From positions 8,167-72,166 of IMG/VR virus record IMGVR_UViG_3300014826_000005: 64,000 nt of DNA; one strand, 5' to 3'. A program made the translations under genes and the position numbers. The DNA is from a virus. Taxonomy: Duplodnaviria > Caudoviricetes. Below, piece after piece: positions 3,822 to 61,851 of this stretch. The first letter of the stretch is position 1. Each line of letters begins with the position of its first letter. The notes below the pieces were generated by a model, which was given only the letters and a program-made list of their open reading frames with translations, ran no database searches and was not told where the DNA came from.

Positions 3822-3840
3822 TCACACTTCTTGACAATTA

Positions 3841-3850
3841 TACATTATCT
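3841..3850 (+). promoter_or_regulatory. Early-type promoter motif TACATTATCT
   Basis: Recurrent motif just after a terminator, at the start of an operon. Confidence 0.6.
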
Positions 3851-3926
3851 AATAGTAAATTATTGAAAAGAGGTGGTTGAATTAAATGTATATTAATACG
3901 ATTTTTATCTAAGGGGAGAAAGCGAA

Positions 3927-4385: not shown

Positions 4386-4406
4386 ATAAGATTAAAGGAG
4401 AACACT

Positions 4407-5089: not shown

Positions 5090-5135
5090 TTCTTCCTTTT
5101 TTATAAAATTTACAGAATAATAGGAGAAATGAACA

Positions 5136-6567: not shown

Positions 6568-6619
6568 TAACCAAATATCCAACGGTTACTATATTTTTTT
6601 TACACAATTATTTAAATAT

Positions 6620-44702: not shown

Positions 44703-44714
44703 GAGTGATGAATT

Positions 44715-45545: not shown

Positions 45546-45580
45546 AATGTAATGAAAAAATATTGTATTTATCAAGTTAA

Positions 45581-45592
45581 AACATTACATTA
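45581..45592 (+). promoter_or_regulatory. Late-type promoter AACA-N6-TA (first of two before the capsid gene)
   Basis: AACAttacatTA. Confidence 0.6.
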
Positions 45593-45658
45593 AAAAAGTA
45601 AATTGCTGGATTTTAGCAATTGCTATTTGTTTCTAGTGAGTAGAAATGCTTTAATAGA

Positions 45659-45670
45659 AACAAATTATTA
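45659..45670 (+). promoter_or_regulatory. Late-type promoter AACA-N6-TA (second before the capsid gene)
   Basis: AACAaattatTA. Confidence 0.6.
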
Positions 45671-45723
45671 AAATTTTGATAAAATCCTAGATAGAAAATT
45701 TGAAAAAAGGAGTGTATTAAATA

Positions 45724-47478
45724 ATGATTACTTTCTTAACAGAATCATCAAAAGATTTTGAAGTAACTGAAACAGTTGGTGGTTTTAACCACAGCTCATC
45801 AGTAAACTCTTTCGATGATATTTTCGAAGAAGCAACTCAATCAATTCGTGCTAATGGTATTGACCCATTAGTTGATATTAATAAATTGATTAAGAACAAT
45901 GCGGCTATGAAGAGTTATAAGGATGGACTTTTAAGTCAATTAAAAGCTGAATCTGAAGACATGCAGTTATCAAATGAAGATTATGGTACTCATAATACTA
46001 TTTATGAACAGACTTCTCAATTATGGGATAACTGTGTTGAAGATTTAGTAAAAGAATCAACTCGTGTAGCTTCATTATTACCAATCAAGGCTGTTGATTT
46101 CCCTGTACTTGTTAAGCAGAACTTAAAGTTAGCTACAAAGGATATCATGCAGACTGAAGTTACAAAAACTCCAATCGTAAAGAAACACATTGAACAGACT
46201 TATATCATTGATAAGAAGTCTAATAAGAAGTGGAAATATCCACAGTGCTTCTTTAATGATGAATTCAAAGAAGTATACCAGGCTGGTAAAGGTTTACCTA
46301 TTAAGAATACTAAGGTAACATTACCACAGATGGAATACGATATTATCACTAATCTTACTGATGGTGTAAAGGATAGAGATCAGTTCACTATGGACCTTCA
46401 CATTGATAAGGTTTATGTTGGTGATACTCCAATCATTTTACATCAACCAATCAGAATCAATCCAGCTGACCAGGCATTACTTGGTGGTGTTATCAACACA
46501 ACTGTTAAAGATGCTCATGGTGCTGATGTTGAAGTTAAAGATGTTATCTCTGGTTTCGCTGATCCAGAAGGTAAGACTGTAACAATTACTTCTGCTGCTG
46601 GTCAGATTACTGCAGTAGAATTCTCAGGATATCTTTCAAATGAACGTAATGAAAGAACTGTAACTTTCGATTATGCTCGTGAAGAAAGAGAATGGAAGAT
46701 CGAAGACGGTTTCCGTGCTGACATCCCTTATTCTCTAGAAGAACTTGAAGATGCTAAAGCATTAATGGATATCGATCTTTACAAGAAGACTTATAACAAC
46801 TTAACTGATATCTTAGCTCAGATGGAAGATAGCCAGGTATTATCTTGGTTAGATGAACAGTTCGAAAAATTCGATGGTATTGAATTAAATCCATTAGATT
46901 GGAACCCATTCATTACTAAACAGGTATTCGATTGTGATTCAACTTCATTAACTACAGCTTTACCAAATGAATACATCGAAAAGATGTTAAAATTCCAGAT
47001 TGACCGTCTGTTAATCGACATTGCTGATAAAGCTAAGTTAGAAGATATGACTTTCGTTATCTATGGTAACCCAAGATTTATCTCATTATTGAACTCTGTT
47101 GTAAACTGGGTAACTCGTCCTGGTTCTACATCAAATGGTGTTAAACTTGACTATGGTTATGGTATCATGACTTCTGGTGATATCAAGGTTCAGGTTGTAT
47201 CAACTAAGAAGGTTAATGCTAAATACGACAAGGATACTAAGTTATTCTCTGGTTTACGTATTATTCCATTCCCTCTTTCAGAAGAACAGTTCACATTCAA
47301 ACATTATAAATATACAACTCATATCTTAACAGCTCAGAACTCAGCTTATCGTTCAGCTGACTTACCTGGCGGATCTATGACTTACTTAATGGGTACTTCA
47401 CGTTATACTAACGCATCTATCCAGGGTATTCAGGGTCAAATGCAGTTAGCTAATGCTGAACAGTGGATTAAGTTATAA
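45724..47478 (+). CDS. Major capsid protein
   Basis: 584 aa; tandem late promoters, codon bias of a highly expressed gene, strong terminator, head-operon position. Confidence 0.75.
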   Translation: MITFLTESSKDFEVTETVGGFNHSSSVNSFDDIFEEATQSIRANGIDPLVDINKLIKNNAAMKSYKDGLLSQLKAESEDMQLSNEDYGTHNTIYEQTSQLWDNCVEDLVKESTRVASLLPIKAVDFPVLVKQNLKLATKDIMQTEVTKTPIVKKHIEQTYIIDKKSNKKWKYPQCFFNDEFKEVYQAGKGLPIKNTKVTLPQMEYDIITNLTDGVKDRDQFTMDLHIDKVYVGDTPIILHQPIRINPADQALLGGVINTTVKDAHGADVEVKDVISGFADPEGKTVTITSAAGQITAVEFSGYLSNERNERTVTFDYAREEREWKIEDGFRADIPYSLEELEDAKALMDIDLYKKTYNNLTDILAQMEDSQVLSWLDEQFEKFDGIELNPLDWNPFITKQVFDCDSTSLTTALPNEYIEKMLKFQIDRLLIDIADKAKLEDMTFVIYGNPRFISLLNSVVNWVTRPGSTSNGVKLDYGYGIMTSGDIKVQVVSTKKVNAKYDKDTKLFSGLRIIPFPLSEEQFTFKHYKYTTHILTAQNSAYRSADLPGGSMTYLMGTSRYTNASIQGIQGQMQLANAEQWIKL

Positions 47479-47494
47479 TATAAATAATGCTATC

Positions 47495-47535
47495 ATATGA
47501 AGTAACTACAATGTAGTTACTTCATATATTTTTTT
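47495..47535 (+). terminator. Intrinsic terminator
   Basis: ATATGAAGTAACTACA/TGTAGTTACTTCATAT stem plus T run. Confidence 0.8.
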
Positions 47536-47639
47536 ACCTTATCAATCTACACACTATTTCTAAAAACAAAATAATTAAGGATAGTATTTTTTGAACTAGA
47601 AATAAAAATATTTTTCTAATATATAGGAGGAAAATAGTT

Positions 47640-48545
47640 ATGCGTTTTAATGTTCATGGCGGTCACTCTCTTAGATGCAGAGGAGCTTCAGGTTTACTAG
47701 ATGAAACAAATGAAGACCGCAAAGTAAAAAATGCTCTTATTAGTTTACTTAGATCTCAAGGTCATACTGTTTATGACTGTACTGATGATGTTGGCTCTAC
47801 TCAAAATCAAAACCTTCATAATATTGTCAATAAGTGTAATGCTCATAAAGTTGACTTAGATATCTCTATCCACTTAAATGCTGGTGGAGGTCATGGATGT
47901 GAAGTTTATGGCTATAGCAATAGAATGAGTGGTGTTGGTGCTCGTGTATCTGCTAATATTGCAAGTGCATTAGGTATTACTAATAGAGGATTTAAAGTAA
48001 GAACTAATCTTTATGTTCTTCATAGAACAAATTCACCTGCTATCTTAGTTGAATGCTGCTTTGTTGATAGTGCAACAGATAAAGCACATTGGAATGTAGA
48101 TAAGTGTGCAAAAGCTATTGCTGAAGGTGTTACTGGTAAGGCTATTACTGAATCAGCTAAACCAGCTCCAGCTCCTGCACCAGCTCCAAAACCTGCAACA
48201 CATTCATCAAATAAGATTTCTGTAGATGGTGTTTGGGGTAAAGGTACAAACAGAAGATTACAGCAATGGTTAGGTATGAGAACTGTTGATGGTATTATTT
48301 CTAATCAGCCTGTAAGTGCTAAAAAGGTACTCATTAGTATTGATCCTAAGGGATGGGAATTTGAAACTGGTGGAAAAGGTTCACCAACTATTTCAGCTCT
48401 CCAGAAGAGATTAGGTATTGGTGCTGATGGTAAACTTGGTCCTAATACAATTAAAGCTATCCAAAGATGGGTTGGTACTACTGCTGATGGAGTCGCTGGT
48501 CCTAAGACTGTAAGAGCTCTACAGAATAAGTTAAACTCATTATAA
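47640..48545 (+). CDS. N-acetylmuramoyl-L-alanine amidase (Amidase_3) endolysin with a Pro/Ala linker and peptidoglycan-binding repeats
   Basis: HGGH, LDE, SIHLNAGGGHGCEV, PAILVECCFVDS; DGVWG/DGKLGP/DGVAGP repeats. Confidence 0.9.
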   Translation: MRFNVHGGHSLRCRGASGLLDETNEDRKVKNALISLLRSQGHTVYDCTDDVGSTQNQNLHNIVNKCNAHKVDLDISIHLNAGGGHGCEVYGYSNRMSGVGARVSANIASALGITNRGFKVRTNLYVLHRTNSPAILVECCFVDSATDKAHWNVDKCAKAIAEGVTGKAITESAKPAPAPAPAPKPATHSSNKISVDGVWGKGTNRRLQQWLGMRTVDGIISNQPVSAKKVLISIDPKGWEFETGGKGSPTISALQKRLGIGADGKLGPNTIKAIQRWVGTTADGVAGPKTVRALQNKLNSL

Positions 48546-48848
48546 AATAAAGAAGATAACTGGTATATTATTCCAGTTATCTTTTCTAATAAAGAAAAAA
48601 AATGAAATACTAGATAAAATATTTTATCTAGTATTTCTTTATATAAATAGTAAGGAACGTGTACACAGATCGTTCTCTTATTGGTATAAATACCAACCAT
48701 AAATAGGTATAAGATGTTGGGTTAAGTTGGGTTAATAGAACCTATTTATGTCTATTCGTCAAACTATTTTCTATTAATACAATGTTGAAAATTCTATTTA
48801 AAGATTTACATTAATATAATAATTATATCATTAGGAGAAAATTATATT

Positions 48849-48920
48849 ATGACATTATTGATTCTCATTGTAGCAATTTTATTTATTTTATATATTGATT
48901 TTTGTGATTTTAAAAGATAA
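48849..48920 (+). CDS. Hydrophobic micropeptide (23 aa, MTLLILIVAILFILYIDFCDFKR)
   Basis: AGGAG RBS. Confidence 0.45.
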   Translation: MTLLILIVAILFILYIDFCDFKR

Positions 48921-48946
48921 CTAAAGGATTTTTTAAATATAACACT

Positions 48947-49039
48947 ATGGATTTTATCGAATTTATTGTAAATAACTATGTAGAACTTATTTCTATTTTA
49001 GTTGTATTAATTATTTACCATTTTCTTCTCGATGATTAA
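48947..49039 (+). CDS. Hydrophobic micropeptide (30 aa, MDFIEFIVNNYVELISILVVLIIYHFLLDD)
   Basis: AAGGA upstream with long spacing; followed by a hairpin. Confidence 0.4.
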   Translation: MDFIEFIVNNYVELISILVVLIIYHFLLDD

Positions 49040-49100
49040 TTAGATGAAATATAGATATATGATTAGAATATTAATCATATATCTATATTTTCCTACTTTA

Positions 49101-49496
49101 TTAATTATAAGCTAATTGATTCTGCTTACTTTCATCTTTAATTTTTTGAATAAGATTGTTAATTTTATGCTGTAACAATTTTAATTTAGATTTATCATTT
49201 GATTGAATCTCATCTTTGATGTTATCAATAGCATGTTTATAATGCGTTCCATGTTTTTTATTTAAATCATAAAGATTATTAATATCTCTTGATAATTTAG
49301 CATATTGAGCAGTTCTTGTAATATTTTCTACTTTATTATTTTGTCTTATTGCTCTTTTATCAAGGTATTCAACTTTAGCTTCTGTTAAGTATTTAGAGAA
49401 TGCTAAAGTTGTAACTTTATTAAATTCTTCTAATGTAATTTCATCATTTACAAAGTTGTCGAAAACAGCTTCATATACGATTGCATATTTATCCAT
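49101..49496 (-). CDS. Probable internal head protein
   Basis: 131 aa, late promoter, YLTE-A site. Confidence 0.5.
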   Translation of the reverse strand: MDKYAIVYEAVFDNFVNDEITLEEFNKVTTLAFSKYLTEAKVEYLDKRAIRQNNKVENITRTAQYAKLSRDINNLYDLNKKHGTHYKHAIDNIKDEIQSNDKSKLKLLQHKINNLIQKIKDESKQNQLAYN

Positions 49497-49526
49497 AAAA
49501 AATGATTCCTCCTTTTGTGCGTATAT

Positions 49527-49538
49527 TAAAAAGATGTT
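49527..49538 (-). promoter_or_regulatory. Late-type promoter AACA-N6-TA
   Basis: AACAtcttttTA. Confidence 0.6.
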
Positions 49539-49586
49539 TTATATACCCCATATTACTAAGTAATTTTCACAAAAAGTAATCAAAAA

Positions 49587-49598
49587 AACATTAACTTA
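49587..49598 (+). promoter_or_regulatory. Late-type promoter AACA-N6-TA
   Basis: AACAttaactTA. Confidence 0.6.
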
Positions 49599-49628
49599 AG
49601 ATTTTTAATATGGAAAGGAGGCTCTCAT

Positions 49629-50483
49629 ATGAATGACCAAAATTTAGGTTATATGTATATCAGTGAGTCGTTTTCTTCAAATAGTGATATCAAAAATGTC
49701 CAACAGAATAAATCTAATGATTTATTCTATGTAACATTTGATACAAATTTACAAGATTTTGATGTCAAAAATAGAAACCAACGATATTATGATGCAAAAA
49801 ATATTATGGATTGTATTCATACAGAAAAGATTCAATCTCTTCTTGCATCTAACGGTTGGTTTGGTGAATTTGACCACCCAGCTCCTGAAATAGCTGGTGA
49901 AAAACTTTCTCCTGAACGTATACAAAATGTCCCACCTCAATATCGAGCTTTTAAGATTATGAATCCTCATCTTGAAGGTAATATTTTAAAGGCTACTATT
50001 CAATCAGCACAAGGACAAGTGGGTGAAGGATTTGGTAAAGAAGTATTGGCTGGATGGGTTCCACAATTTTCATGTCGAGCTATTGCTACTATGGAAAATC
50101 GTGCAGGTAAACCATACGTCAATGTAAAAAGATTAATCACATATGATGCACCATGGTATCCTTCTCATGCTGTTGCTCATGCAACAAGTGCACCTGTTGT
50201 ACATACAAAATCATTTACTGAATCAGCTCAGACTGTTTTAGAAAGTGCTAAGGATAAAATTAATGGTGTAATGATTCCATTAAAAGAAATTTTGGAATAC
50301 GTTGGAAAAACAGATGTCAATACACGTATGATTATGGAAGCATTTGAATTACCTCTTGATAATCTTGCTGGTTTTGATAAGAATCGTCAACATGTTCTCA
50401 TTAAAGATGATTCAAATACAATTTATGCAAATATTGACCCTGAAACAGTAAAACGTGTCAATGATTTCTATGAATCATTTTAA
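49629..50483 (+). CDS. Prohead core protease (T4 gp21-like)
   Basis: NRNQRYY, GEFDHP (His), FSCRA (Ser), ITYD.PWYPSH..A. Confidence 0.85.
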   Translation: MNDQNLGYMYISESFSSNSDIKNVQQNKSNDLFYVTFDTNLQDFDVKNRNQRYYDAKNIMDCIHTEKIQSLLASNGWFGEFDHPAPEIAGEKLSPERIQNVPPQYRAFKIMNPHLEGNILKATIQSAQGQVGEGFGKEVLAGWVPQFSCRAIATMENRAGKPYVNVKRLITYDAPWYPSHAVAHATSAPVVHTKSFTESAQTVLESAKDKINGVMIPLKEILEYVGKTDVNTRMIMEAFELPLDNLAGFDKNRQHVLIKDDSNTIYANIDPETVKRVNDFYESF

Positions 50484-50518
50484 TAGTAATTAGAATTAAT
50501 TAGAAAGGAGATTATGAC

Positions 50519-53500
50519 ATGGCTACAACTGATCAGAAGGACTTATCTATACAGATGGTCCATATTGATGATCAAAAAGATGTTCATCAGCTTTATCCTA
50601 AAACAAAGGATAAAAATGTAACGGTAGAATCAACAAATAAAGCATTGCCTACAGGTATTTCATCATTAAAAGACCTTGTTGATAAATTAGGTGATACAGC
50701 ATTTACAAGTTCTACTGTTATAGGTATTACTACTGATGAACGTAATAAATTAAAAGGCATCGAAGAAGGTGCACAGGTCAACATGGTTGACGGTGTAAAA
50801 GGCGATGCTGAAACATATTATAGAACTGGTGATATCAATATTACTAAGGCCAATATTGGACTAGGTAGTGTTGAAAATAAATCATCTGCAACTATAAGAA
50901 GTGAAATTACTTCACAAAATGTTACATCTGCTTTAGGCTATACTCCTCCTAAACAGGATACAACATATAGTGATGCAACAACTCAAGTTCATGGTTTAAT
51001 GTCTACTGATGACAAAGTTAAACTTGATGGTATTGCTCCTGGTGCACAGGTCAATTCTATTACTGGTGTTAAAGGTGATAATGAAACAACATACCGTACT
51101 GGTAATGTGAATATCACTAAAGCTAATATTGGTTTAACAAACGTTGAAGATAAGTCATCTGCAACAATTCGAGGAGAATTGACATCTAAGAATGTTACGG
51201 ATGCACTAGGCTATGCACCTCCTAGAGTTAATACAACTTATGAAGAAGCAACCACAACAACTGATGGTTTATTATCTTCAGAAGATAAAACAAAATTAGA
51301 CTCTATTGAAAGTGGTGCCCAAAAGAATACTGTTACAGGTGTTAAAGGCTATAATGAATCTGCTTATCGTAGAGGTGATATTGTCATCACTAAAGCTAAT
51401 ATCGGTTTAACAAACGTTGAAGACAAATCATCTGAAACAATTCGAGGAGAATTGACATCTAAAAATGTTACGGATGCATTAGGATATACACCTCCTAAAC
51501 AAGATACAACTTATCCACCAGCAAATGGTTCAACTCTAGGGTTAATTAAAACTGGTGGAAGTTTAACATTAACAAGCGGTGTGGCTACTGTTAATGATAA
51601 CTCACATAAGCATACAATTGCTAATATTACGAATTTACAATCATCATTAGATAGTAAATTAAATACATCTCTAAAAGGTGCTAAAAATGGATTAGCTGAA
51701 CTTGATGAAAATGGTCTTGTACCTTCTACTCAATTACCTTCATACGTTGATGATGTTATTGAAGTGAATATGGGTTCAGATTTAACATCCGCAACATTAG
51801 CAAATGATTCACCAGTTACACCAGAAGCAGGTAAGATTTATGTTGATTTAGCATCAAATAAAACTTACAGATGGTCTGGTACAACATTCGTTGTTATTTC
51901 TGATACTATTGCTTTAGGCGAAACATCAACAACAGCATTTGATGGTGCTCGTGGTAAGGTTGCTTATAACCATTCACAATCTGCTCATGCAAGAGTTGAT
52001 GCTACTTTAACACAAGCATCTACTACTAATGGTAATATTAAAATTAATGGTACTGAAACAAAAGTCTATACTCACCCAGGTTATACTGCTCAAAAGAGTG
52101 GTTTATATAAAGTTACTGTAGATGGTAGTGGACATGTGAGTGCTGTTACAGCTGTCACAAAAGCTGATATTACTGCATTAGGTATCCCAGGCCAAGATAC
52201 GAATACAACATACGTTGCTGCAACATCAACTGCTAATGGTTTGATGTCATCATCTGATAAAGCAAAATTAGATGGTATCGCAAGTGGAGCAAACGCATAC
52301 ACTCACCCAGGATATACATCAAGAACAAGTGGTCTTTACAAAATCACTGTTGACAGTTTAGGTCACGTAAGTGCTGTAGCATCTGTTACTAAAGCAGATA
52401 TTACAGGTTTAGGTATTCCTGGTTCTGATACAACTTATAGTACAATGACTGGTGCAACAACTGATGCCGATGGCTCAAAAGGTCTGGTTCCAGCACCATC
52501 TAAAGGTAGTAATTCACGTTACTTACGTTCTGATGGTACATGGGTCACTCCACCTAATACAACATATCCTAATGCATCATCATCAGTTAATGGTTTGATG
52601 TCAGCATCTGATAAAGCAAAATTAGATGGTATTGCTAGTGGTGCAAATAAATACACTCATCCAGGATATACAGCTTATGATTCTGGATTCTATAAAGTTT
52701 CTGTAGACTCTACAGGCCATGTTGCTGCTGCTGTAGCCGTTAGTAAATCAGATATTACAAGCTTAGGTATTCCAGGACAAGATACAACTTATGCTGATGC
52801 TACTACATCAGCTCATGGTTTAATGACAGCTGCTATGGTATCTAAACTTAATGGAATAGCTTCTGGTGCAAATGCATACAGTCACCCAACATATTCATCA
52901 CATGCATCGGGATTATATAAAATAACAGTTGATGGTACCGGTCACGTAAGTGCTGTAGCATCTGTTACTAAATCAGATATCGCTGCATTAGGTATTCCTA
53001 GTTCTGATACGACATATGGTCTTATGAAGGGTGCTACATCATCTGTTGATGGTGCAACAGGTTTGGTTCCCGCACCATCTAAAGGTGACAGTTCACGTTA
53101 CTTACGTTCAGATGGTACATGGGTCACTCCACCTAATACAACATATTCAGATGCTACAACATCAGCCCATGGTTTAATGACAGCTGCTATGGTGTCTAAA
53201 CTTAATGGAATAGCAAGTGGTGCGAATGCATATAGTCACCCAGGATATACATCAAGATCAAGTGGTCTTTATAAGATTACGGTAGATAGTACTGGTCATG
53301 TAAGTGCTGTATCATCTGTTACTAAAGCAGATATTACTGCATTAGGTATCCCAGGACAGGATACTAATACAACATATGGTGTTGTATCATCATCGTCAAA
53401 TGGGTTGATGTCACCAACAATGTTGAACACATTAAATAGTGTTAATAGTGCTATTGGTGGGAAGTATTCGTCAAGTGGCGGCACTTTAAATGGTGACATA

Positions 53501-54772
53501 ACATTCCCTGAAATTGGTAGTACTGGTTCAAGTAAAGGTATTAACTGGTCAGGAGGTACTGATGGTGCTAGAATCTATTATAAAACAACGGCTCAAGATG
53601 CAGGCCATTTAGTATTTCAGGCTACAGACGATGCTGACGCCGTCATTGACTTTGAATGGAATATTGGAGGTACAGTTTCTAGAAAATCATACATCACATC
53701 GGATGGTGTTTATCATGGTACTGCTACTTATGCTACTAGTGCTGGATCGGCAAATAGTGTTGCTTGGGGCAATGTAACTGGTAAACCATCTACATATACT
53801 CCATCGTCGCATACACATACTATCGCTCAAATAACTAATTTAGAGTCAACTTTAGACGGTAAGGCAGCTAAATCACACACTCATGGTATTAGTGATATTA
53901 CTAATTTACAAAGTACTATCAACACCATTAATAGCAATAAAGCTGATCTGTCGTATTTAAATAAAAACTTTTACAGTACGACAAGTGTCGATAATATAAT
54001 TAATGGTTTGAATTATAAAGCAATCAGTCTTAATGGAGGTAATACTGCAAACTATCCTTACCATAGATTCTTATCTATACAGAATCTAACAGGTCAATGG
54101 AGTGATACTGTAGGTATTTATCTAATAGATAAAAGATATGATGGTGGGGGATACGGTATTGTAAAAGTAACATTACGAACAAATGACAAAATTTCAAATT
54201 ACTCGGTTTCTATAAGATGGCTCGCAAGATCTTCATCGTTTGCAGCAGCAGATATATCGTATGGTGCATATTTACATGATAATAAGTTAGATGTCGATGT
54301 GTTTATGAAATGCGGTGGCTGGCCTAGAACGAAAGTATATAATATATTTGGCGCATCAGATTGGACTATGATGAGTTCTGAAGAATCTAATGATACAACT
54401 ACAACAAATAGACTAAAATCTGTTGAATGTTATTCTTCTTTAGCAGATGCTGGAACAAAAATACATTCAGCATCTTATTCACGTACTGGTGAAGGTGTAG
54501 ATGAAGGTGTTGTAGCTAGAGCTACTAATGCCGATAATGCGTCTAGTGTAGCTTGGGGCAATGTAACTGGTAAACCATCTACATATACTCCATCATCACA
54601 TACACATACTATCTCTCAAATAACTAATTTACAGTCAACTTTAGATAGTAAAGCTGCTGCAAATCACACACATCCATACATTTCGACATCTGTCAATTAT
54701 GTTCTTATTACAGATGAAACAAATTTAACAGCATATGATGCAAGTTCCGCAAAGTGGAATGCACCTTCATAA
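50519..54772 (+). CDS. Long tail fibre: constant part 50519-53929 (1137 aa) plus the currently fused variable cassette 53930-54772
   Basis: Multiple fibre repeats (HPGYT..SGLYK.TVD..GHV; GVKG..E..YR.G..ITKANIGL; HTH motifs). Confidence 0.88.
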   Translation: MATTDQKDLSIQMVHIDDQKDVHQLYPKTKDKNVTVESTNKALPTGISSLKDLVDKLGDTAFTSSTVIGITTDERNKLKGIEEGAQVNMVDGVKGDAETYYRTGDINITKANIGLGSVENKSSATIRSEITSQNVTSALGYTPPKQDTTYSDATTQVHGLMSTDDKVKLDGIAPGAQVNSITGVKGDNETTYRTGNVNITKANIGLTNVEDKSSATIRGELTSKNVTDALGYAPPRVNTTYEEATTTTDGLLSSEDKTKLDSIESGAQKNTVTGVKGYNESAYRRGDIVITKANIGLTNVEDKSSETIRGELTSKNVTDALGYTPPKQDTTYPPANGSTLGLIKTGGSLTLTSGVATVNDNSHKHTIANITNLQSSLDSKLNTSLKGAKNGLAELDENGLVPSTQLPSYVDDVIEVNMGSDLTSATLANDSPVTPEAGKIYVDLASNKTYRWSGTTFVVISDTIALGETSTTAFDGARGKVAYNHSQSAHARVDATLTQASTTNGNIKINGTETKVYTHPGYTAQKSGLYKVTVDGSGHVSAVTAVTKADITALGIPGQDTNTTYVAATSTANGLMSSSDKAKLDGIASGANAYTHPGYTSRTSGLYKITVDSLGHVSAVASVTKADITGLGIPGSDTTYSTMTGATTDADGSKGLVPAPSKGSNSRYLRSDGTWVTPPNTTYPNASSSVNGLMSASDKAKLDGIASGANKYTHPGYTAYDSGFYKVSVDSTGHVAAAVAVSKSDITSLGIPGQDTTYADATTSAHGLMTAAMVSKLNGIASGANAYSHPTYSSHASGLYKITVDGTGHVSAVASVTKSDIAALGIPSSDTTYGLMKGATSSVDGATGLVPAPSKGDSSRYLRSDGTWVTPPNTTYSDATTSAHGLMTAAMVSKLNGIASGANAYSHPGYTSRSSGLYKITVDSTGHVSAVSSVTKADITALGIPGQDTNTTYGVVSSSSNGLMSPTMLNTLNSVNSAIGGKYSSSGGTLNGDITFPEIGSTGSSKGINWSGGTDGARIYYKTTAQDAGHLVFQATDDADAVIDFEWNIGGTVSRKSYITSDGVYHGTATYATSAGSANSVAWGNVTGKPSTYTPSSHTHTIAQITNLESTLDGKAAKSHTHGISDITNLQSTINTINSNKADLSYLNKNFYSTTSVDNIINGLNYKAISLNGGNTANYPYHRFLSIQNLTGQWSDTVGIYLIDKRYDGGGYGIVKVTLRTNDKISNYSVSIRWLARSSSFAAADISYGAYLHDNKLDVDVFMKCGGWPRTKVYNIFGASDWTMMSSEESNDTTTTNRLKSVECYSSLADAGTKIHSASYSRTGEGVDEGVVARATNADNASSVAWGNVTGKPSTYTPSSHTHTISQITNLQSTLDSKAAANHTHPYISTSVNYVLITDETNLTAYDASSAKWNAPS
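53930..53939 (+). repeat. Crossover core AATAGCAATA in the expressed fibre frame (N-S-N)
   Basis: Same core and reading frame as the five silent cassettes. Confidence 0.8.
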
Positions 54773-54780
54773 TAAAGAAA

Positions 54781-54812
54781 AAATATAGAATGGGCTAGCC
54801 CATTCTATATTT
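54781..54812. terminator. Bidirectional terminator inside invertible segment 1
   Basis: AAATATAGAATGGGC/GCCCATTCTATATTT. Confidence 0.8.
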
Positions 54813-55248
54813 ATTTTATACCCATACATAAAATACTTTCTACTGTTATACTATCAGCAGCAAATGCGATAATATTACTACCATTTCCGTTCTTAGTTCC
54901 ACAACACTGTATTCTTGAGCCTTCAGCAAATAGAGTTAGCGTATTTCCATTAACTTTTCCTCTAGTAATATTTAAACTATAAGAATAGCTATAACCTCCA
55001 CCGTCTCCATAAGGAACAATTAACCCACAGTCAAATGTACCATCAGAATTTATTCTAGTAAATCCACCAACATTATAATATCCACTAGCCTGACCCTGTA
55101 TTCTGATATATTTATACTTAGATATATTAGGAATTGTTAATGTTAGATCCTTACTAAGTTTATAAGCTCCACCTGGAATATAAGAAGAAAAATCCACAAT
55201 TTCAAACTTACTAATTACTTCAGCTCTTGCTGTATTGATATTGCTATA
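54811..55248 (-). other. Silent fibre-tip cassette A (145 aa, YSNINTARAEVISKFEIVDFSSY...CMGIK)
   Basis: Open frame begins at core TATAGCAATA (55239-55248), no RBS or true start. Confidence 0.8.
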
Positions 55249-55261
55249 TAATCTATAAAGA

Positions 55262-55299
55262 ATATCTTAAACCTAAGTGTATAACTAGGTTTAAGATAT
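55262..55299 (+). repeat. 38-bp palindrome unit 1 (ATATCTTAAACCTA-agtgtataac-TAGGTTTAAGATAT)
   Basis: 14-bp perfect arms with an asymmetric spacer; inverted relative to units 2 and 3. Confidence 0.9.
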
Positions 55300-55312
55300 T
55301 TATATTTTCATA

Positions 55313-55687
55313 AATAGCAATATTGCAGGCATTGATCATGAAGCATTATTATACACCGATTATTCATCTAAATGGAGACGAAGTGATGGTGTACATATTA
55401 AGAACGTTGAAGCATGTGTAGTTATCACAAAGGGTCACACTTGCGAAATTTATATAGCAGCAGTTGTGCAAGGGGGATGGAATAGCGGTGATACTAGCCC
55501 GTGGGTACTAGGTAATTTACCAGCACCTCTTAACAATGGATTTCAATGTGTTGGATATAATGCCAACGACGGGCGTCCTATTAGATTCACTGTTAATGAA
55601 GACGGTTGGTTGAAACCATGGTATAATAAAGAACCTTTAGTTGATAGTGTAACGTTCTCTGTCCATACTTGTTATATAACTAAATAG
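55313..55687 (+). other. Silent fibre-tip cassette B (124 aa, NSNIAGIDHEALLYTDYSSKW...CYITK)
   Basis: Open frame begins at core AATAGCAATA (55313-55322). Confidence 0.8.
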
Positions 55688-55691
55688 TATA

Positions 55692-55994
55692 CTAATTCTT
55701 AACAAGAATAGATGTAACGATAATTCTAGCATTGGATGGTATTGTTTGTTCATATTCTGAAATATTCATAACATAGACATTAGCGTTTGATCTAGTAATA
55801 TCATCAATATTATCAAAGCCACCTTTGATAGATGTAATTCCGTAAATATTCGTATCTATATTATAAACAGAATATCCCGATGGGACGGGAACGTTTACTG
55901 TAAATATTTTACCTTGATATCCTGTAAGTTTTGTACCAGCCCATGCAGTAGAGTACGTGGTAATTATTTTTATCTTATCTGAGATATTGCTATT
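55692..55994 (-). other. Silent fibre-tip cassette C (100 aa, NSNISDKIKIITTYSTAWAG...ILVKN), absent from the ORF track
   Basis: Stop-free frame from core 55985-55994 to TAG at 55692. Confidence 0.78.
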
Positions 55995-56007
55995 TATGAA
56001 AATAAAA

Positions 56008-56045
56008 ATATCTTAAACCTAGTTATACACTTAGGTTTAAGATAT
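56008..56045 (-). repeat. 38-bp palindrome unit 2
   Basis: ATATCTTAAACCTA-gttatacact-TAGGTTTAAGATAT. Confidence 0.9.
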
Positions 56046-56058
56046 TCTTTATAGATTA

Positions 56059-56412
56059 TATAGCAATATCACAGGTATCAATGGTAAATTAAATTTACCA
56101 CATTTAGCCAGTAGAGAGTTAGCTACAAATGCTCAATTTTTTGCTACAACAAGTACTACTGATACAATATATACTTGTAAAAATTTGGATAATGGAGCTA
56201 TTATTTTCGCATATTTATCATTCTCTGGATCAGCTCAATTATTTGCTACAGCAATCATTGATACACCAATGTTTTTAGCAAATAATGAAGATGCGGTTGT
56301 TTTACATGATAGTGTAAATGGTCAAACAGGGTATATTCGTCGTAAGAGTACAACATCTATTTCGATACTCGTGTCTAATAGTAATTGGCAACTAAGTGTT
56401 GTTATTTATTAA
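56059..56412 (+). other. Silent fibre-tip cassette D (117 aa, YSNITGINGKLNLPHLASR...SVVIY)
   Basis: Open frame begins at core TATAGCAATA (56059-56068). Confidence 0.8.
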
Positions 56413-56435
56413 AAAACTATTTTATGGAAATATAA

Positions 56436-56473
56436 ATATCTTAAACCTAGTTATACACTTAGGTTTAAGATAT
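56436..56473 (-). repeat. 38-bp palindrome unit 3
   Basis: Identical to unit 2; left core degenerate, right core intact. Confidence 0.9.
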
Positions 56474-56486
56474 CTTTTATGAATTA

Positions 56487-56567
56487 TATAGCAATAATGC
56501 CAAGAATACGAATAATGTATCGTCTATTCGATTTTTCATTATTTTAAATAAAAAAATACATGTATAG
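56487..56567 (+). pseudogene. Truncated cassette E (26 aa, YSNNAKNTNNV...)
   Basis: Intact core (56487-56496), but the frame ends within a terminator. Confidence 0.55.
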
Positions 56568-56589
56568 ATATTCTCTATACATGTATTTT
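56553..56589. terminator. Bidirectional terminator
   Basis: AAAATACATGTATAGA/TCTATACATGTATTTT. Confidence 0.75.
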
Positions 56590-56593
56590 CTTT

Positions 56594-57327
56594 TTAAATA
56601 GTATTAAGGAAGAAAAGTAATTCATCAGATATTTTATTTTCTGAGTATTTAATTTCTTCTCCTAATAATTCAGGATATTCATAAGTGACATAAGTAAAAC
56701 GCGTATTAATAAGACTACTTAACATTGAAAGAATTAAATCTGGTTTAATATAATTCAACATACGATATTTTGTTTGCATTAAATTTTGATACATATAGTT
56801 ATCTTCTATTTTTGCAATAAATTTATTATTTCTTATAATACGTGTATTAACATGATCACTTAGATTTCCTGTTAGAATATAAGGTAAAGATGCATAGTGG
56901 ATTTTTCCTTTTTCATCTTTCATATACCCTAAATCCAAAAGTAATTTTTTCTTTAATAATAGTAGAATTGTAATATATTGTCTTTTACTTAAAAGATTTA
57001 AGTCTCTATAAGAACCAAAGTATTTTGTATAATAAGCATAAACAAATTGGAATTGAATTGGTGAAGGATCATGGTATTCCATATAATAATTAATTTCTTC
57101 ATCACTTAAAGGAATATCAATATCTTTCTTAATAAGATCAATCGTCATATCAACGTTGATTTCACTCATGGTAATGACACCTTCATCAAGCTTACTTGCA
57201 TTCATAAGCATCTTATCAGCACCTGATAATCCTTCAGAACTATGAATATTACTTACTTCTGTTAAGTTCTTAGAATACTGATCTTTTAAGAAATAACTTA
57301 ATTGGAATTTAATGATTGTTTTATTAA
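56594..57327 (-). CDS. Exon 2 of the probable non-virion RNAP specificity subunit (AR9 gp226 / phiKZ gp68-like)
   Basis: Frame is open upstream of the tracked ATG up to the splice site; reads (F)NKTIIKFQLSYFLK... Confidence 0.6.
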
Positions 57328-57745
57328 CTTTAACGCATATTATCTCTAATATGAATAGACTATATCTTCATTTAATATGTACTATTACCATACATATTAA
57401 AGCCCTCCATTTCGGATTATTGTCACAAAGACTCACCTACGTTTCGTCCTATGATTGGACCTACTCGCTTATCAAACCACCTGATTTCTCATTTCAGTAT
57501 TTCTACATACATGGTTGTCTAGCTTTCCCTAGTCGTTGAACTCACAACTTATATAAGTTGCTTTGCTGCGTCGATTGTCTCTATTCATAACCTTATTACT
57601 ATACCTTGAGAGTTACCTCTTGCCACTAAGTATATCACTATCTTAGTTTAGTAGTTATGACCTAACGAGCATACTTTCGTATGTCTGAATAAAATTCAGA
57701 AGTTTCCCGCAATTAAAAGGGTTTGAGTTGAACTAATAAAAATCA
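57328..57745 (-). ncRNA. Group I intron (418 nt, no ORF)
   Basis: P AATTGCGGGAAA, Q AATCGACGCAGC, R TCAACGACTA, S GATATAGTCT; P1 GTTGGAT|TGAT with ATTAGTTCAAC (U-G at the splice site); P10 TTAATAA/TTATTAG; P9 CATATTA-GAGA-TAATATG; terminal G. Confidence 0.9.
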
Positions 57746-58820
57746 ATCCAACGATGTTCTCTTTATATTTATGAAGTTTTTTGTCATAGTGTTCATTAAA
57801 ACGATACTTAACAACATTTTCACTAATTAATACTTTATTGGTAAATTGTCTTACAACAGTGTAGACATCAATACCAAAAATTTCTCGTTGATTAAAGATA
57901 GGTGCATTATTTGCGTTACTCTCTAATACTTTCGCCTTTACATAGACATAGAGTTTTGCATAAAGATCAATCTTTGTTCTTGTATAATACACCATTTGCC
58001 CTTCATTATTAATAAAATAATAATACTTATCTTTACCAATAATTGTAGGTTCAATTTGATTATCTTTCACAAATTTCATAACGTCTTCTTCAGGAATTTC
58101 ATCTTGAATGATATTACCCGTTGTATCATCGAGTTCATAAGTTGAAGCATATCCAAATAAATCAAATAACCTTCTATAGAACTTAAAAATGATATCACTA
58201 TCTTTTTCTAATTTGATACTATTCAATTGAATATAGTGAAAGATAGCTGGAGACATAATTTTCATTGAGAATGAAATCTGTAAAAGAATCTTAATATGTT
58301 GATTTGTAAATTCCAATGATTCCAAATGTTTCTTTTGTTTTAAATACTTTTGTTTTTCTGTTGTATTGGATTCAATATCATCCAAATAGTTTTCTTCAAC
58401 CATACGAATGATTTTCTCAATCATTGTATCTGTGAACATGACTTCATAGATAAAATCTATATAAGCCATCATATTTTCTTTATTAAATACTTTTTGCTTA
58501 TCTAAAGCAAATTTGATTTTTAGATAAGCTAATACCAGTTCATCTTCAAAATCATAATTATTAATAAAGAAATTCGTATAAGATGTAATAATATCAAGTT
58601 GATTAATGTAAGATTCTTTCCCTATTAGGAATCGTTCATAAGGCTTAAGTCTATCGACAAAATCCTTTTCTCCTTTTTTATGTCCTAATTCAGGATATAA
58701 TTTTGCATTAAATACTTTTGAGAAATGACAGACAAATAATTTACCGTCTCTCTCCACAATAATTTGTGATGGCGTTGGCTTCCACGTATTAATTTTAGAA
58801 GTCCTTTTTTCAATTTCCAT
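57746..58820 (-). CDS. Exon 1 of the probable non-virion RNAP specificity subunit; spliced product 602 aa
   Basis: Early promoter; two genes from the chaperonin, as gp226 and gp228 are in AR9; junction ENIVG-F-NKTII. Confidence 0.6.
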
Positions 58821-58880
58821 TGGTAGATGTAACCTCGCTTTCCCTTTCTTTTCACAATATACTATTTTTAAATAGCCAAT

Positions 58881-58890
58881 AGATAATATA
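58881..58890 (-). promoter_or_regulatory. Early-type promoter motif TATATTATCT
   Basis: Recurrent motif. Confidence 0.6.
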
Positions 58891-58900
58891 TAAACAATAG

Positions 58901-59713
58901 CTATTTTCTCGTTGTCTTTTTTCCTCCTATTTTTTTCATGACATGTTGACCACCATTACGTTTTTTAATAATACGAATGCTTGACGACTCATTATTACCT
59001 TTATGTGTTGAAAATACTTTCTGTATTTTATTAATATTACGCTGTGTTTTACGTTTACCTTCGTCAGTAATATTTTTACGTAATTTCTTTTCTTCATTCA
59101 TCAAAGCTTGGTCTAATTTAATTGATTTAAAATCAGAAATTTCTCTAAAAAATGTATCCGATTTTACACGCTTTAAATGATCAAGATAAAAACCTTTACG
59201 AAGATATTTAAATTCATTTCGTATTAAGTATTCACATGCTAAATAAATACTTTTATCATACCATCTTTTCATAGTAGGATTTGTTTTTGTTGGTGGAACA
59301 TCAATATAGTCAGGATCAAGCTTATCATATAAGGTTTCAATAAGCATACTATTTTGTTTATAGATATAAGCATATGTATACATAAATGATGGACTGTTGG
59401 AATAGAATTGAACATTGTATAATGTCAATGTTCCACCATTAAGAACACTTTCGTTATCACTATAAAATCGTATAACGACATCATAGTAGTAATGATCCTT
59501 ACCATTTGTTGTTTGAGATTCTGAAGGTACTTTTATATGGAAGTAATAAGAATCTTCAATCTGACAAGTGGCATTAATATGAATTTTTCCTTCTCCATTT
59601 AATTTCTTAAATGTGTTGGAATAATTTTGCATAGTTGGAATATCAATAGATGAACCCATCGGTTTTTTAATAAAATCAAAAATATTTTGACCTTTAATGG
59701 GTGGCATAATCAT
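58901..59713 (-). CDS. Hypothetical protein with a basic C-terminal tail
   Basis: 270 aa, GAGGTG RBS. Confidence 0.8.
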   Translation of the reverse strand: MIMPPIKGQNIFDFIKKPMGSSIDIPTMQNYSNTFKKLNGEGKIHINATCQIEDSYYFHIKVPSESQTTNGKDHYYYDVVIRFYSDNESVLNGGTLTLYNVQFYSNSPSFMYTYAYIYKQNSMLIETLYDKLDPDYIDVPPTKTNPTMKRWYDKSIYLACEYLIRNEFKYLRKGFYLDHLKRVKSDTFFREISDFKSIKLDQALMNEEKKLRKNITDEGKRKTQRNINKIQKVFSTHKGNNESSSIRIIKKRNGGQHVMKKIGGKKTTRK

Positions 59714-59721
59714 TCACCTCT

Positions 59722-61851
59722 CTAGAAATTATGCTTACCTGTTACAACCATCTGATTACCAGCAATAAGTAGAGAAATCAAATCAATAGTTGCTGTTAAA
59801 ATTTCTTCATCTGTCTGAGCACTATTAATAACGTCTGAAGAATATTCAAAACGGGAAACATCAAAAACCTTATCTGTAATAATAGAATAGTCAATAAGGA
59901 CATCTGTTAAACGAATTTCATATAAGCCTTCTTTATTCTTTTTAGCATCTAAACGAATAGCTTCATCCAAATGCTTTCTATCAAAAAGCTTACTCATGAT
60001 ATCTTCACCTCTCCAATTAGAGAAGAATTGAATCACATCGTTTTGAATATCATCAATAGAAACACCTGTAAAAATTTCATCATCAAATGCATTGATAATG
60101 ACAGTACGATAGACATCTTTAAATCCTTTATAAAGAATATCATAAAGTTTGTAGTTAATGTCATCTTCTTTAAAATCATCACGTAATTTCTTAATCGTTC
60201 TAATAAGAGTTAAGTTACATCCTTTAATAACGCCATTGTTATAAGCAGAAGACGCTGCTTTAATGGCATCATCAACGGAGTCTTTTAGCATCTTTTGAGA
60301 GAGCTCACTATCTCCACCTACTTCAATAGAACCCATCTTTAAACGTAATGAATAAAGTCTTTCTTGAGCTTGTGAGACTTCAATATTGAATGTCCCTAAT
60401 TTAGAATACTTTTTAACAGCTGCATCATATACATCTTGAGCATCAGATAATGTAATCTTGTAACGTTCTTTATCAAATACCATATTTGTAAACTGTGATG
60501 TTTTTAATCCAAGTTCACATTCTTTAACGTATCCTAAATTGATATAGTCATCGATTAATTGATAATCTTCAATATCATTAATAGCACTATAACCTTTTAC
60601 TGTTTGTAAATCAGCATCATCTGTATATAATATACCTCTCTGGACAGTTGTATCATCTCCTGTATAAAGAGCAACACGTCTTAATCCTTCAATAGGTCTC
60701 TTATCAATATTGAATATTTGAGAAATACCATATCCCTTACTGATATTTTCAATAATAGATGATTCTAATGCTTTATCAATGATAGTTGTATTCATAAGCA
60801 TAGCGAAGTCACTAATAAGTCTTCGTGTATGTGCTGAAATAGCTTTATAAGTTGTTAAAACCATTACCAAGTCATGATTCTTTTTGTATTCATTATTCAT
60901 ATCAACAGAAATAACTTGTTGAATAGCTTTTTCATCATAAACAGGAGCTGCAACAATTAAATGTCTACCTCTTGTTTTACTTTCTAAAGCCAATGGTTTT
61001 AAAATTTCCTTATAAACTTCAGCCGTAATTTTTGTACCAAAAATAATAACATCACTATCTTTAAGTGACATTGTGTTATTATCATTATTGATATATAATT
61101 TATCATTTAAAGATAAATTGTATTTATATCCTGTGATAAGTTTTTTTCTTGTCACACCATCAGGAGATAATGAACATGTAATAGCAGGTGTACCAAGTTC
61201 TTTATATAAATCAGTAATATACTCTGTAATAAGAGGATCAGCATTACTTGATATATAAACGACCTTTCTAATATTTTCAGCCATTTCATTAATATCATCA
61301 CTCTGAATAGATTGAATTTGTGGTTTCATATTCAGAATAATAGCTTCTTTAATTAATTCATATAATCGTAAAATATCTCTAGGAAGTAAATAAAGTTTTT
61401 TAAAATCATCTCTACTTTTACGATAATTACGATAAATACTATTTGTTGCAATGATAGCACTTGTTGTACCATCACCAACGATATAATTTAAACGTCCACA
61501 AATATCACCAGCCATATCTGCAATAGCTTGGTCAACTTTTGTTTCACTTGCATCTAAAGAAAGATTTTTCATAATAGTATAACCATCTTTTGTGACGTGA
61601 GAATAAGGATAGTTATAAATAATCGTTGGTGCTCCATAAGGACCAAAAGACTTTGATAAAGCATCCCATAATAAATGGAAGACTTTTTCAATACGATCTT
61701 CAAAATCTTCTTTAGGAATAATATTTAATCTTGGATCTTTTTTAAAAAGAGGTCTACGAGGTATAGGCGCGCAGTCAACGTCATCATAATTACGAGTACG
61801 ATTGTCCTCTCTTAAATTTTCGTCTGTTTTCTTAATATTTGTCGTATTCAT
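59722..61851 (-). CDS. groEL: Phage chaperonin (GroEL-like)
   Basis: SFGPYG, VTKDGYTI, GDGTTSAII, VGGDSE, DAIKAA...GV..G. Confidence 0.88.
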   Translation of the reverse strand: MNTTNIKKTDENLREDNRTRNYDDVDCAPIPRRPLFKKDPRLNIIPKEDFEDRIEKVFHLLWDALSKSFGPYGAPTIIYNYPYSHVTKDGYTIMKNLSLDASETKVDQAIADMAGDICGRLNYIVGDGTTSAIIATNSIYRNYRKSRDDFKKLYLLPRDILRLYELIKEAIILNMKPQIQSIQSDDINEMAENIRKVVYISSNADPLITEYITDLYKELGTPAITCSLSPDGVTRKKLITGYKYNLSLNDKLYINNDNNTMSLKDSDVIIFGTKITAEVYKEILKPLALESKTRGRHLIVAAPVYDEKAIQQVISVDMNNEYKKNHDLVMVLTTYKAISAHTRRLISDFAMLMNTTIIDKALESSIIENISKGYGISQIFNIDKRPIEGLRRVALYTGDDTTVQRGILYTDDADLQTVKGYSAINDIEDYQLIDDYINLGYVKECELGLKTSQFTNMVFDKERYKITLSDAQDVYDAAVKKYSKLGTFNIEVSQAQERLYSLRLKMGSIEVGGDSELSQKMLKDSVDDAIKAASSAYNNGVIKGCNLTLIRTIKKLRDDFKEDDINYKLYDILYKGFKDVYRTVIINAFDDEIFTGVSIDDIQNDVIQFFSNWRGEDIMSKLFDRKHLDEAIRLDAKKNKEGLYEIRLTDVLIDYSIITDKVFDVSRFEYSSDVINSAQTDEEILTATIDLISLLIAGNQMVVTGKHNF

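Follow-up and report, generated by a model that had tools for sequence, protein, structure and literature searches.

What do five start-less reading frames encode that lie behind a giant tail-fibre gene and all open with the same short motif, and are they exchanged by the phage? This question is raised by positions 53930 to 56567 of the analysed stretch of phage DNA (64,000 nt, hereafter the window), for which the initial annotation had proposed that inversions swap the tip of the 1417-aa fibre. Our data support a model, to which we assign a probability of about 0.8, of a single shufflon-type system with two cassette arrays, 54811-56567 being one of them, in which a small tail protein is switched by a mobile module. 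The features discussed are the following:

50519-54772, (+), giant tail fibre ORF, 1417 aa, containing PTR repeats
53930-53939, (+), fibre core, AATAGCAATA followed by A, in frame as N-S-N
54773-54820, unstranded, terminator-like palindromic hairpin between the fibre stop and the 3' end of cassette A
54811-55248, (-), cassette A, start-less tip of family F2, 145 aa
55239-55322, unstranded, spacer 1: core (-), arm, hairpin ATATCTTAAACCTA/TAGGTTTAAGATAT, arm, core (+)
55313-55687, (+), cassette B, family F5, 124 aa
55692-55994, (-), cassette C, family F4, 100 aa
55985-56068, unstranded, spacer 2: both cores present, reverse complement of spacer 1 (97%)
56059-56412, (+), cassette D, family F6, 117 aa
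56421-56496, unstranded, spacer 3: hairpin intact, left core decayed (AAAAAACTA), right core ATAGCAATA followed by A
56487-56567, (+), E, 26-codon stub after the last core, running into a terminator-like palindrome

Start-less frames behind a recurrent core

The core WATAGCAATA is present in seven copies in the 64-kb window compared to 1.39 expected, a number reached in 0 of 100 shuffles, and six of the seven copies fall within 53930-56496, i.e. at 53930(+), 55239(-), 55313(+), 55985(-), 56059(+) and 56487(+). These are five array sites and one fibre site, to which a second locus of the same phage (locus 2, see below) adds eight. Translations started at the core are open to the stops named initially (A 145 aa, B 124, C 100, D 117, E 26), all start with (N/Y)SN(I/N) and share one common phase, confirming the initial description of start-less frames behind a recurrent core. 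The full cassettes A, B, C and D show no mutual sequence relatedness. They are parted by near-identical hairpin spacers of 66 nt with the cores placed back-to-back; the stretches 55236-55328 and 55979-56071, each of 93 nt, are 97% reverse-complementary, and each spacer folds into a hairpin of 14-16 bp (-17 to -21 kcal/mol, z about -5). Judged by eye, the conserved part of the site comprises ~10-13 bp, the left flank being freely variable. The hairpin described before between the fibre and cassette A is real as well (-18.7 kcal/mol, z -5.3); a search of 54700-58000 against Rfam yielded no match. E is a boundary remnant and no tip: its sites carry an arm of their own, and re-assortment of them was never seen among 37 distinct sites. 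In the related genome L081 neither spacer 3 nor the E core is present.

Gene callers place a 128-aa ORF with a GTG start in A and ORFs of 73-75 aa in B and D, as expected if the cassettes were ordinary small genes with their own internal starts and the repeats divergent regulatory regions. We regard this reading as exceedingly improbable. The frames are open and conserved upstream of these internal starts, back to the core, the part upstream is present in the fused proteins described below, and between hairpin and core neither a start codon nor a Shine-Dalgarno sequence was found for any of A-E. Under the shufflon-type model the called ORFs of 128, 73 and 75 aa would be pieces of silent tips and no genes.

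Cassettes are joined to a movable module

In related public contigs the cassettes join a 113-aa N-terminal module exactly at the core, and not the giant fibre. The module provides an RBS, an ATG and a tail-protein repeat, and the fusions are proteins of 213-301 aa; together with the RBS and the upstream region it forms a segment of ~455 bp between two inverted cores (ATAGCAATAT). The 113-aa part contains a PTR-like repeat and has the end ...SKV(D/N)AI-NSNI, matching tail PHROGs weakly (1.4e-6 to 5e-4). We found the module fused at the core to at least eight different tips, and nine public module-tip proteins have residues 1-117 in common (96 invariant) followed by total divergence after ...INSNI. 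Three of the cassette families, A, B and C, have tips on module proteins: cassette A is 86% identical to residues 115-258 of P0132, cassette C 68% identical to the tip of P0136 and cassette B 49-53% identical to the tips of P0134, P0135 and P0137. No module-fused form of cassette D was present among the proteins fetched. The crossover lies inside a predicted α-helical neck, allowing any tip to join in frame. In our reading the switched gene is the one encoding this module protein, a small tail protein that is probably receptor-binding. Upstream of the module ATG we noticed an AACA-N6-TA motif, which has 16 occurrences in 17.4 kb and is thus a lead only.

The AF2 model of cassette A shows a β-rich domain (pLDDT about 80-97), the N-terminal half of the model being of low confidence. 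Its best fold matches in Foldseek are a baseplate chain of Staphylococcus phage phi812 (9euf_8, E 1.2e-4) followed by C-terminal domains of phage K gp144 (E 1e-2), all with low TM scores.

Database searches define how far the system could be followed. Among GenBank phages, neither the DNA of 53500-56700 nor the protein P0138, the module protein of the window's own phage, has a match; a query of IMG/VR with the module-tip protein returned none, and GTDB genomes hold no module relative. The exact hairpin pattern had no match in IMG/VR. A two-core pattern gave 98 matches there, e.g. in the repetitive fibre of L096, which we rejected as chance matches, as we did a single match in JGI metagenomes inside an unrelated long ORF.

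A second array in the same phage

The contig scaffold_97 contains a stretch identical to the window over 16254/16254 positions and in addition locus 2 with P0138, showing that both belong to the same phage. Locus 2 lies outside the window, about 21.5 kb past cassette E, and holds eight further cassettes. In the window's phage locus 2 now holds the module, which is fused there to a tip of 181 aa (protein P0138), so the window cassettes are silent in this genome. Instead of the about five fibre variants counted initially, we count about 12 alternative tips for a small tail protein, four in the window (A-D) and eight in locus 2.

The phage has ~231 kb, comes from the gut and encodes fragments of a multisubunit RNA polymerase; it shows no sign of lysogeny. 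Genes near the arrays include an RNAP-related gene, a chaperonin, a primase and a UvsX-like gene, the latter inside locus 2 (phrog_97, 6e-38); for a neighbour of 239 aa an Atlas look-up pointed to RNAP.

Exact exchanges at the core in related genomes

The genomes L184 and L185 are identical outside the two cores (4844/4844 and 1990/1990 positions), and between the cores one carries the 455-nt module and the other a 66-nt spacer. Among genomes with identical flank proteins we observed three slots for the module. It is located in locus 1 beside A' in L184, L186 and L214-216, replacing the 66 nt between the cores of spacer 1; in locus 2 fused to tip F1:188 in L194, L206 and L207; and, again within locus 2, it carries F1:182 in L208, L210 and the strain of the window (L192/L209). 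Two genomes, L205 and L211, have such 66-nt spacers, i.e. blanks, in both slots of locus 2. The cassette order in relatives, a comparison suggested by the initial annotation, differs as well, the B-C segment being inverted in L081 and L182-L185 relative to the window. Across the 37 distinct sites left and right flanks assort independently, and one cassette start can follow up to four left arms, both module ends included.

Two metagenomes, which are not clones, bring such differences into one data set. Assembly ERZ27280444 forks at a core, the same 129 module nt leading to A' or to F1:188 on separate contigs that diverge directly after AATAGCAATAT, and two assemblies of the source run SRR948120 diverge precisely at a core. 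Compared with 51000-58500, the Logan contigs of four runs break at the repeats and show arms swapped in a relative. Odd loose ends in source-run contigs proved to be locus-2 paralogues. A shufflon explains why assemblies break or differ at the array. The B-C inversion, the module-spacer swap, the flank assortment and the assembly fork support exchange at the core, and with it the shufflon-type array of the initial annotation. Most of the isomer evidence is a comparison between different samples, and the isomers across samples could be fixed strain differences instead of ongoing switching.

Alternatively, the array may once have been active and the window cassettes may now be silent remnants that are no longer exchanged in this strain. 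Decay does occur: E and spacer 3 have decayed, cassette B is truncated in L081, and the core of cassette D is mutated to ATAGTAATA in L182-L185. Cassette D, open with 117 aa in three strains (74-84% nt identity), has a dN/dS of 0.63-1.15, i.e. about 1, and the source-sample contigs show breaks at repeats only, minor forms being invisible to contigs. Against such a fossil array, the dN/dS values relative to relatives of cassettes A (0.30-0.49), B (0.31-0.57) and C (0.31-0.40) indicate that these three are maintained as coding sequence under purifying selection (0.3-0.57 overall), and their lengths are kept. Also against it stand the intact cores and spacers (97% alike), the exact swaps between genomes otherwise 100% identical, the fork within one assembly and the core-exact difference between the two source-run assemblies. 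We consider a fossil array improbable.

The giant fibre as a neighbour of the array

The initial annotation took the 1417-aa fibre for the switched gene. The fibre is supported as a tail protein by Pfam (PTR, 1.9e-29) and by matches to tail PHROGs, and bounds the array on the left; it is a neighbour rather than a demonstrated acceptor, and the acceptor seen is the 113-aa module. An inversion between the fibre core (53930) and the cores of A or C would exchange the C-terminal 280 aa of the fibre for a cassette, making the fibre the acceptor or a second acceptor. In favour, the fibre copy preserves all 10 nt of the core and the common phase, and its similarity to the B and C sites extends over 14 nt with one mismatch. 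An I-N-S-N-K/I motif occurs in this strain's fibre only, among more than 100 long fibres fetched, and as the shufflon core itself encodes I-N-S-N, a chance occurrence is unlikely. The residues upstream in the fibre, S-T-I-N-T-I-N-S-N, moreover resemble the module junction S-K-V-N-A-I-N-S-N.

Other observations weigh on the opposite side. The core is absent from six related giant fibres (L081, L182-L186), which all share one C-terminus, and all 79 loci retrieved from IMG/VR with the fibre as query lack it. In related fibres, which span 1081-1549 aa, the C-terminus is constant and internal domains differ, and the supposed fibre tip is such an internal domain between PTR repeats, present in relatives without the core. 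The fibre site reads ATAGCAATAA, in contrast to ATAGCAATAT at each of the 35 sites that are not E stubs; its +1 position is A, as in the never re-assorted E stub, compared to T in the 35 others. No fusion of a giant fibre with cassette A exists among 1.84 billion representatives, which contain just stand-alone ORF calls, and a word search with cassette B for longer proteins found none. The joint 53929/55248 does not occur in the Logan contigs of four runs (51000-58500), contigs being blind to rare forms, and a source-sample contig spans 53930 unforked, which is a weak argument. Taken together, the activity of the fibre core is doubtful, and we hold a role of the fibre as acceptor to be unlikely.

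Recombinase and crossover

Searches of the 72-kb record with PF00239 (serine recombinases) and PF00589 (tyrosine recombinases) gave no match, in line with the initial statement that no recombinase lies nearby. Over the ~118 kb of the ~231-kb phage that we examined, neither type turned up, and the called genes in about 45 kb around locus 2, including a further 10 kb, contain no recombinase. Pfam and PHROGs assign the 30 neighbours of both loci to functions such as primase, UvsX-like protein, RNAP β fragment, HNH endonuclease and structural proteins. Large IMG/VR phages with tyrosine recombinases were considered as relatives and rejected, having no module.

With a site-specific recombinase searched for and none found, a UvsX-like gene present and inverted spacers of 93 nt being 97% identical, general homologous recombination acting on the 84-93-nt inverted spacers might make the exchanges. 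This appears quite unlikely to us, given that the swaps and module-tip junctions break inside an identity of 9-13 bp with unrelated flanks on either side. RecA-type exchange would need a much longer identity, and the pattern recurs at many independent junctions; the protein alignment boundary is razor-sharp after INSNI. We infer that a site-specific recombinase catalyses the exchange.

A model for switching of the small tail protein

The shufflon-type model can be formulated as follows. Recombination at the cores would invert single segments or groups of segments. Slots between two cores that do not contain the module would hold the 66-nt hairpin as a blank, and the module would trade places with the blanks, thereby coming into frame with one of the about 12 start-less tips. 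The hairpins may insulate the slots or terminate transcription, and the tips would be expected to set the host range. In a more far-reaching version, which we consider unlikely, the promoter-bearing module commutes between arrays 21.5 kb apart, driven by a recombinase that is not recognisable as one of the serine or tyrosine type or is supplied by the host, and the giant fibre perhaps serves as a second acceptor. If true, both loci would form one shufflon, one invertible segment of which holds the chaperonin, RNA-polymerase and other essential genes. The shufflon-type model offers a concrete and testable way in which a large phage hedges its host range in animal guts.

Comparison with known systems

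Programmed tail-fibre inversion is known from temperate phages having one locus, few tips and an adjacent invertase. The R64/IncI1 pilV shufflon depends on the tyrosine recombinase Rci, and the vsa system of Mycoplasma pulmonis on expression-site switching by HvsR. The present system has at least three sites in both orientations, start-less C-termini in frame, a constant 5' part and isomers at the site, and is shufflon-type, a class already known. Neither an Rci-type enzyme (no PF00589 match on the record, array neighbours without recombinase) nor a Gin/Cin/Min-type enzyme with Resolvase domain plus HTH (no PF00239 match on the record) accompanies it. Gin/Cin/Min crossover sites span 26 bp in two inverted half-sites of 12 bp and are accompanied by an enhancer to which Fis binds, compared to a conserved part of ~10-13 bp here.

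The R64/IncI1 pilV shufflon (cited in PMC9881135) is similar in its many short sites in both orientations, its start-less C-termini in convergent pairs, its single and group inversions and its one constant N-terminal part. In R64 this constant part is fixed outside the array with rci adjacent, whereas here promoter and constant part are mobile, silent slots hold hairpin blanks, the two loci are 21.5 kb apart and no recombinase is nearby. The vsa system shares in its layout the single expression site with promoter and 5' coding end, silent genes without 5' ends that are expressed via site-specific inversion at a short box, and one enzyme serving more than one locus; it differs in being a bacterial surface lipoprotein system with longer sites and an adjacent recombinase gene.

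Among phage systems, p15B Min, Mu Gin and P1 Cin are serine invertases of tail-fibre inversion systems (PMC6109161). As proposed here, DNA inversion exchanges tail-fibre C-termini and alters host range, Min using several crossover sites, but these are temperate phages or plasmid prophages whose serine invertase is adjacent to the segment and whose constant part (Sc) is fixed outside it. According to PMC6109161, no phage locus that depends on an invertase provided in trans had been described earlier. Similar in their sites are the Rin shufflon of a Bifidobacterium prophage (PMC6109161) and the shufflon of BV01-like Phocaeicola phages (PMC13596623), with short asymmetric cores of 11 bp and 10 bp, respectively, compared to 9-10 bp here, located upstream of several RBP or tail-fibre tips in configurations varying between genomes or reads. 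Both are temperate systems of one locus with 3-5 cassettes, a flanking recombinase and a fixed constant gene. The system described here, without a flanking recombinase, differs from them in layout: a ~231-kb gut phage would command about a dozen interchangeable receptor-binding tips in arrays split over two loci, the mobile piece being promoter and N-terminus and the silent slots being filled by hairpin blanks.

Cores, cassettes and spacers

The window spans positions 8167-72166 of its source record, a 72,166-bp IMG/VR fragment with an estimated completeness of ~30% (CheckV). The putative recombination core WATAGCAATA occurs seven times in the window versus 1.39 copies expected, with six of the seven lying within 53930-56496. 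Translation from the cores gives the following frames.

Frames of the window array
55248->54811, minus strand: cassette A, open frame from the core, 145 aa
55313-55687, plus strand: cassette B, open frame from the core, 124 aa
55994->55692, minus strand: cassette C, open frame from the core, 100 aa
56059-56412, plus strand: cassette D, open frame from the core, 117 aa
E, behind the last core: 26-codon stub read from the core, in one phase with A-D

Frames A-E share a single phase, each starting with (N/Y)SN(I/N), and none has a start codon between spacer hairpin and core. The cassettes show no sequence kinship to one another. The spacers A|B and C|D, 93 nt each and mutually reverse-complementary at 97%, are built as core(-), 14-nt arm, hairpin with a 14-bp stem, 14-nt arm and core(+), and in a third spacer, ahead of E, the left core is gone. 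Folding of the spacer hairpins yields -17 to -21 kcal/mol (z ~ -5). Core counts, frames, spacers and hairpin folds therefore confirm every detail of the core and cassette layout described in the initial annotation.

Exchange at the core among relatives

Isolated-phage collections, IMG/VR, JGI metagenomes and GTDB genomes contained no usable relative; relatives were obtained from ENA and Logan assemblies. The B-C segment is reversed in L081, a public locus with flanks 97% identical to the window, and also in L182-L185. Across 37 distinct sites catalogued from 12 loci, the same cassette start can be preceded by up to four different left flanks, and all junctions have only ATAGCAATA in common, mostly with T and C after it. 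Between strains, A, B and C show dN/dS values of 0.30-0.57 at unchanged cassette lengths; cassette D is open with 0.63-1.15. Broken cassettes are found in some strains, so silent tips do decay: B is shortened to 99 aa in L081 (locus coordinates ~4551-4847) and L208, L210 and L211 (~12091) retain 18-25 aa of the cassette F2:148 (tip family 2, 148 aa).

A mobile module as acceptor

L184 and L186 carry ~455 nt in place of the 66 nt that separate the A and C cores. This stretch supplies a Shine-Dalgarno sequence together with an ATG and 113 codons, which read in frame across the core into the relatives' A-type cassette A', resulting in a 258-aa protein. L184 and L185, which stem from separate samples, are identical on the left (4844/4844) and right (1990/1990) of both cores, the difference being confined to the sequence in between. 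Nine public proteins of 213-301 aa match the 118-residue N-terminal part; they have residues 1-117 in common (96 invariant) and diverge completely after ...INSNI, their tips being 86%, 49-53% and 68% identical to window cassettes A, B and C, respectively. These sequence comparisons point to the small module gene, not the giant fibre, as acceptor of the cassettes. An AACA-N6-TA motif, itself frequent, is located 80 nt upstream of the module ATG.

The central inference of the initial annotation, swapping of the tip of the 1417-aa giant fibre, was not upheld. All related giant fibres (1081-1549 aa) lack the core and are identical in C-terminal sequence, and the supposed tip is a domain lying internally, flanked by PTR repeats, which relatives also possess, there without a core. 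Among >100 long fibres fetched, the I-N-S-N-(I/K) motif occurs only in this strain's fibre. Its site carries A directly after ATAGCAATA, as in the E stub, and T is found in all 35 sites other than E stubs; the E sites have an arm peculiar to themselves in the catalogue. Exchange of the fibre tip at the fibre core is improbable, relatives giving it no backing.

The giant fibre (50519-54772) is itself a mosaic, measuring 1081, 1417, 1455 or 1549 aa in strains otherwise 97-100% alike (compared with L182-L186 and L081), with the last ~40 residues in common and whole domains gained or lost between PTR repeats. In the window, the direct repeats 53702-53884 and 54491-54673 share 79% identity. Separately, a 389-aa minus-strand frame shows 40% identity to module residues 27-84 at 42543-42719 (-) and encodes a paralogous small fibre protein; its counterpart is probably the 374-381-aa Phage_fiber_2-like gene called at the left edge of the relatives' loci.

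Module and tip comparisons gave weak matches of the module to tail-protein PHROGs. In the AlphaFold model of the module protein P0132 the junction lies within a helix (residues 103-125) and the A-type tip is modelled with confidence as beta-rich; in Foldseek the top matches are baseplate chains of Staphylococcus phage phi812 and the C-terminal domains of phage K gp144. We infer the tips to be receptor-binding domains. The hairpin blanks, i.e. the 66-nt spacers filling silent slots, may terminate or insulate transcription.

A second locus and isomers

Two sequences from run SRR948120 encode the 294-aa module protein P0138: ENA scaffold_97 and contig k127_4365. Scaffold_97 contains window positions 44519-60772 with 16254/16254 identical nucleotides and carries two arrays.

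Arrays on scaffold_97
30092-28309: window array (locus 1)
577-6896: locus 2

The nearest locus-2 core lies ~21.5 kb past cassette E on scaffold_97, the near end of locus 2 being ~13.5 kb beyond the right end of the window. Locus 2 comprises eight cores, the same hairpin spacers as the window and seven silent cassettes (101-188 aa), with its module joined to a 181-aa tip on scaffold_97. The window strain holds 12 full cassettes; by clustering, the tip families number at least eight. Genomes with an identical 239-aa flank protein carry the module in either of two locus-2 slots or in neither, and full-length contigs of ~231 kb have it in locus 1 (L214) or locus 2 (L194, L206, L207). Formally, both loci are one shufflon, one invertible segment of which is 21.5 kb long and has two convergent tips enclosing genes that include the chaperonin and RNAP-related ones. 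On a 25.4-kb contig, judged by gene order only, locus-1 flank and cassette C directly adjoin module, protein P0133 and the UvsX-like gene, which needs exchange between the loci, either through successive inversions or through recombination of direct cores.

In ERZ27280444 one 129-nt stretch of module has two continuations, A' on one contig and the 188-aa tip on a second, splitting right after AATAGCAATAT; the A' contig stops within one k-mer beyond the junction, in line with a graph fork. Two assemblies of the window's run share 99.985% identity across 13.3 kb right of a core and differ left of it. These data derive from metagenomes, so coexisting strains may be their source.

Two assemblies of one run (L192:1-4121 versus L191:7505-7566) differ by ~4.1 kb of extra array placed exactly at a core, with four cassettes and three genes of 174, 169 and 240 aa; PHROG assigns the 240-aa product to virion structural proteins. 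This could be a deletion/insertion between direct cores or reflect two sub-strains.

Recombinase and neighbouring genes

The recombinase search and neighbour annotation reached about half of the ~231-kb genome. The serine and tyrosine recombinase domains PF00239 and PF00589 had no match on the 72-kb record; neighbours of the loci encode a primase, a UvsX-like strand-exchange protein, an RNAP beta fragment, an HNH endonuclease and structural proteins. That breakpoints are limited to 9-13 bp of identity favours a site-specific enzyme, which would act in trans, over general recombination.

The UvsX-like RecA-family gene (418 aa; phrog_97, 6e-38) lies outside the window in the same phage (L191:8258-9514 = L192:4813-6069), inside an invertible shufflon segment and directly after the 188-aa tip; isomers differ in where it lies and which way it points (L191 versus L194). 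The RNA-polymerase beta-like gene (PF00562; L191:2846-5188) is a single 780-aa ORF in the window's strain and is split in relatives (L194:3230-6697) into parts of 386 and 224 aa with a 318-aa HNH-type ORF behind them, possibly an insertion polymorphism due to a homing element. Window positions 57326-57744 (419 nt) are missing from L081, where the flanking 374-aa and 205-aa ORFs form one 602-aa ORF; this is a precise insertion polymorphism, consistent with an intron. No Rfam family was found in 54700-58000.

Comparison with known systems

In function, the two-locus array is a shufflon. Its logic comes nearest to that of R64 pilV and of the Mycoplasma pulmonis vsa expression-site system, its purpose to that of the phage systems Min, Rin and BV01-like (PMC6109161, PMC13596623, PMC9881135). 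Unlike all of these, the phage has a mobile expression module, hairpin blanks in silent slots, an array divided between two loci, with an invertible interval of 21.5 kb, and jumbo size with no adjacent recombinase. Lacking an adjacent recombinase, it does not qualify as an Rci-type or Gin-type system. We therefore class the system as a variant form of shufflon.
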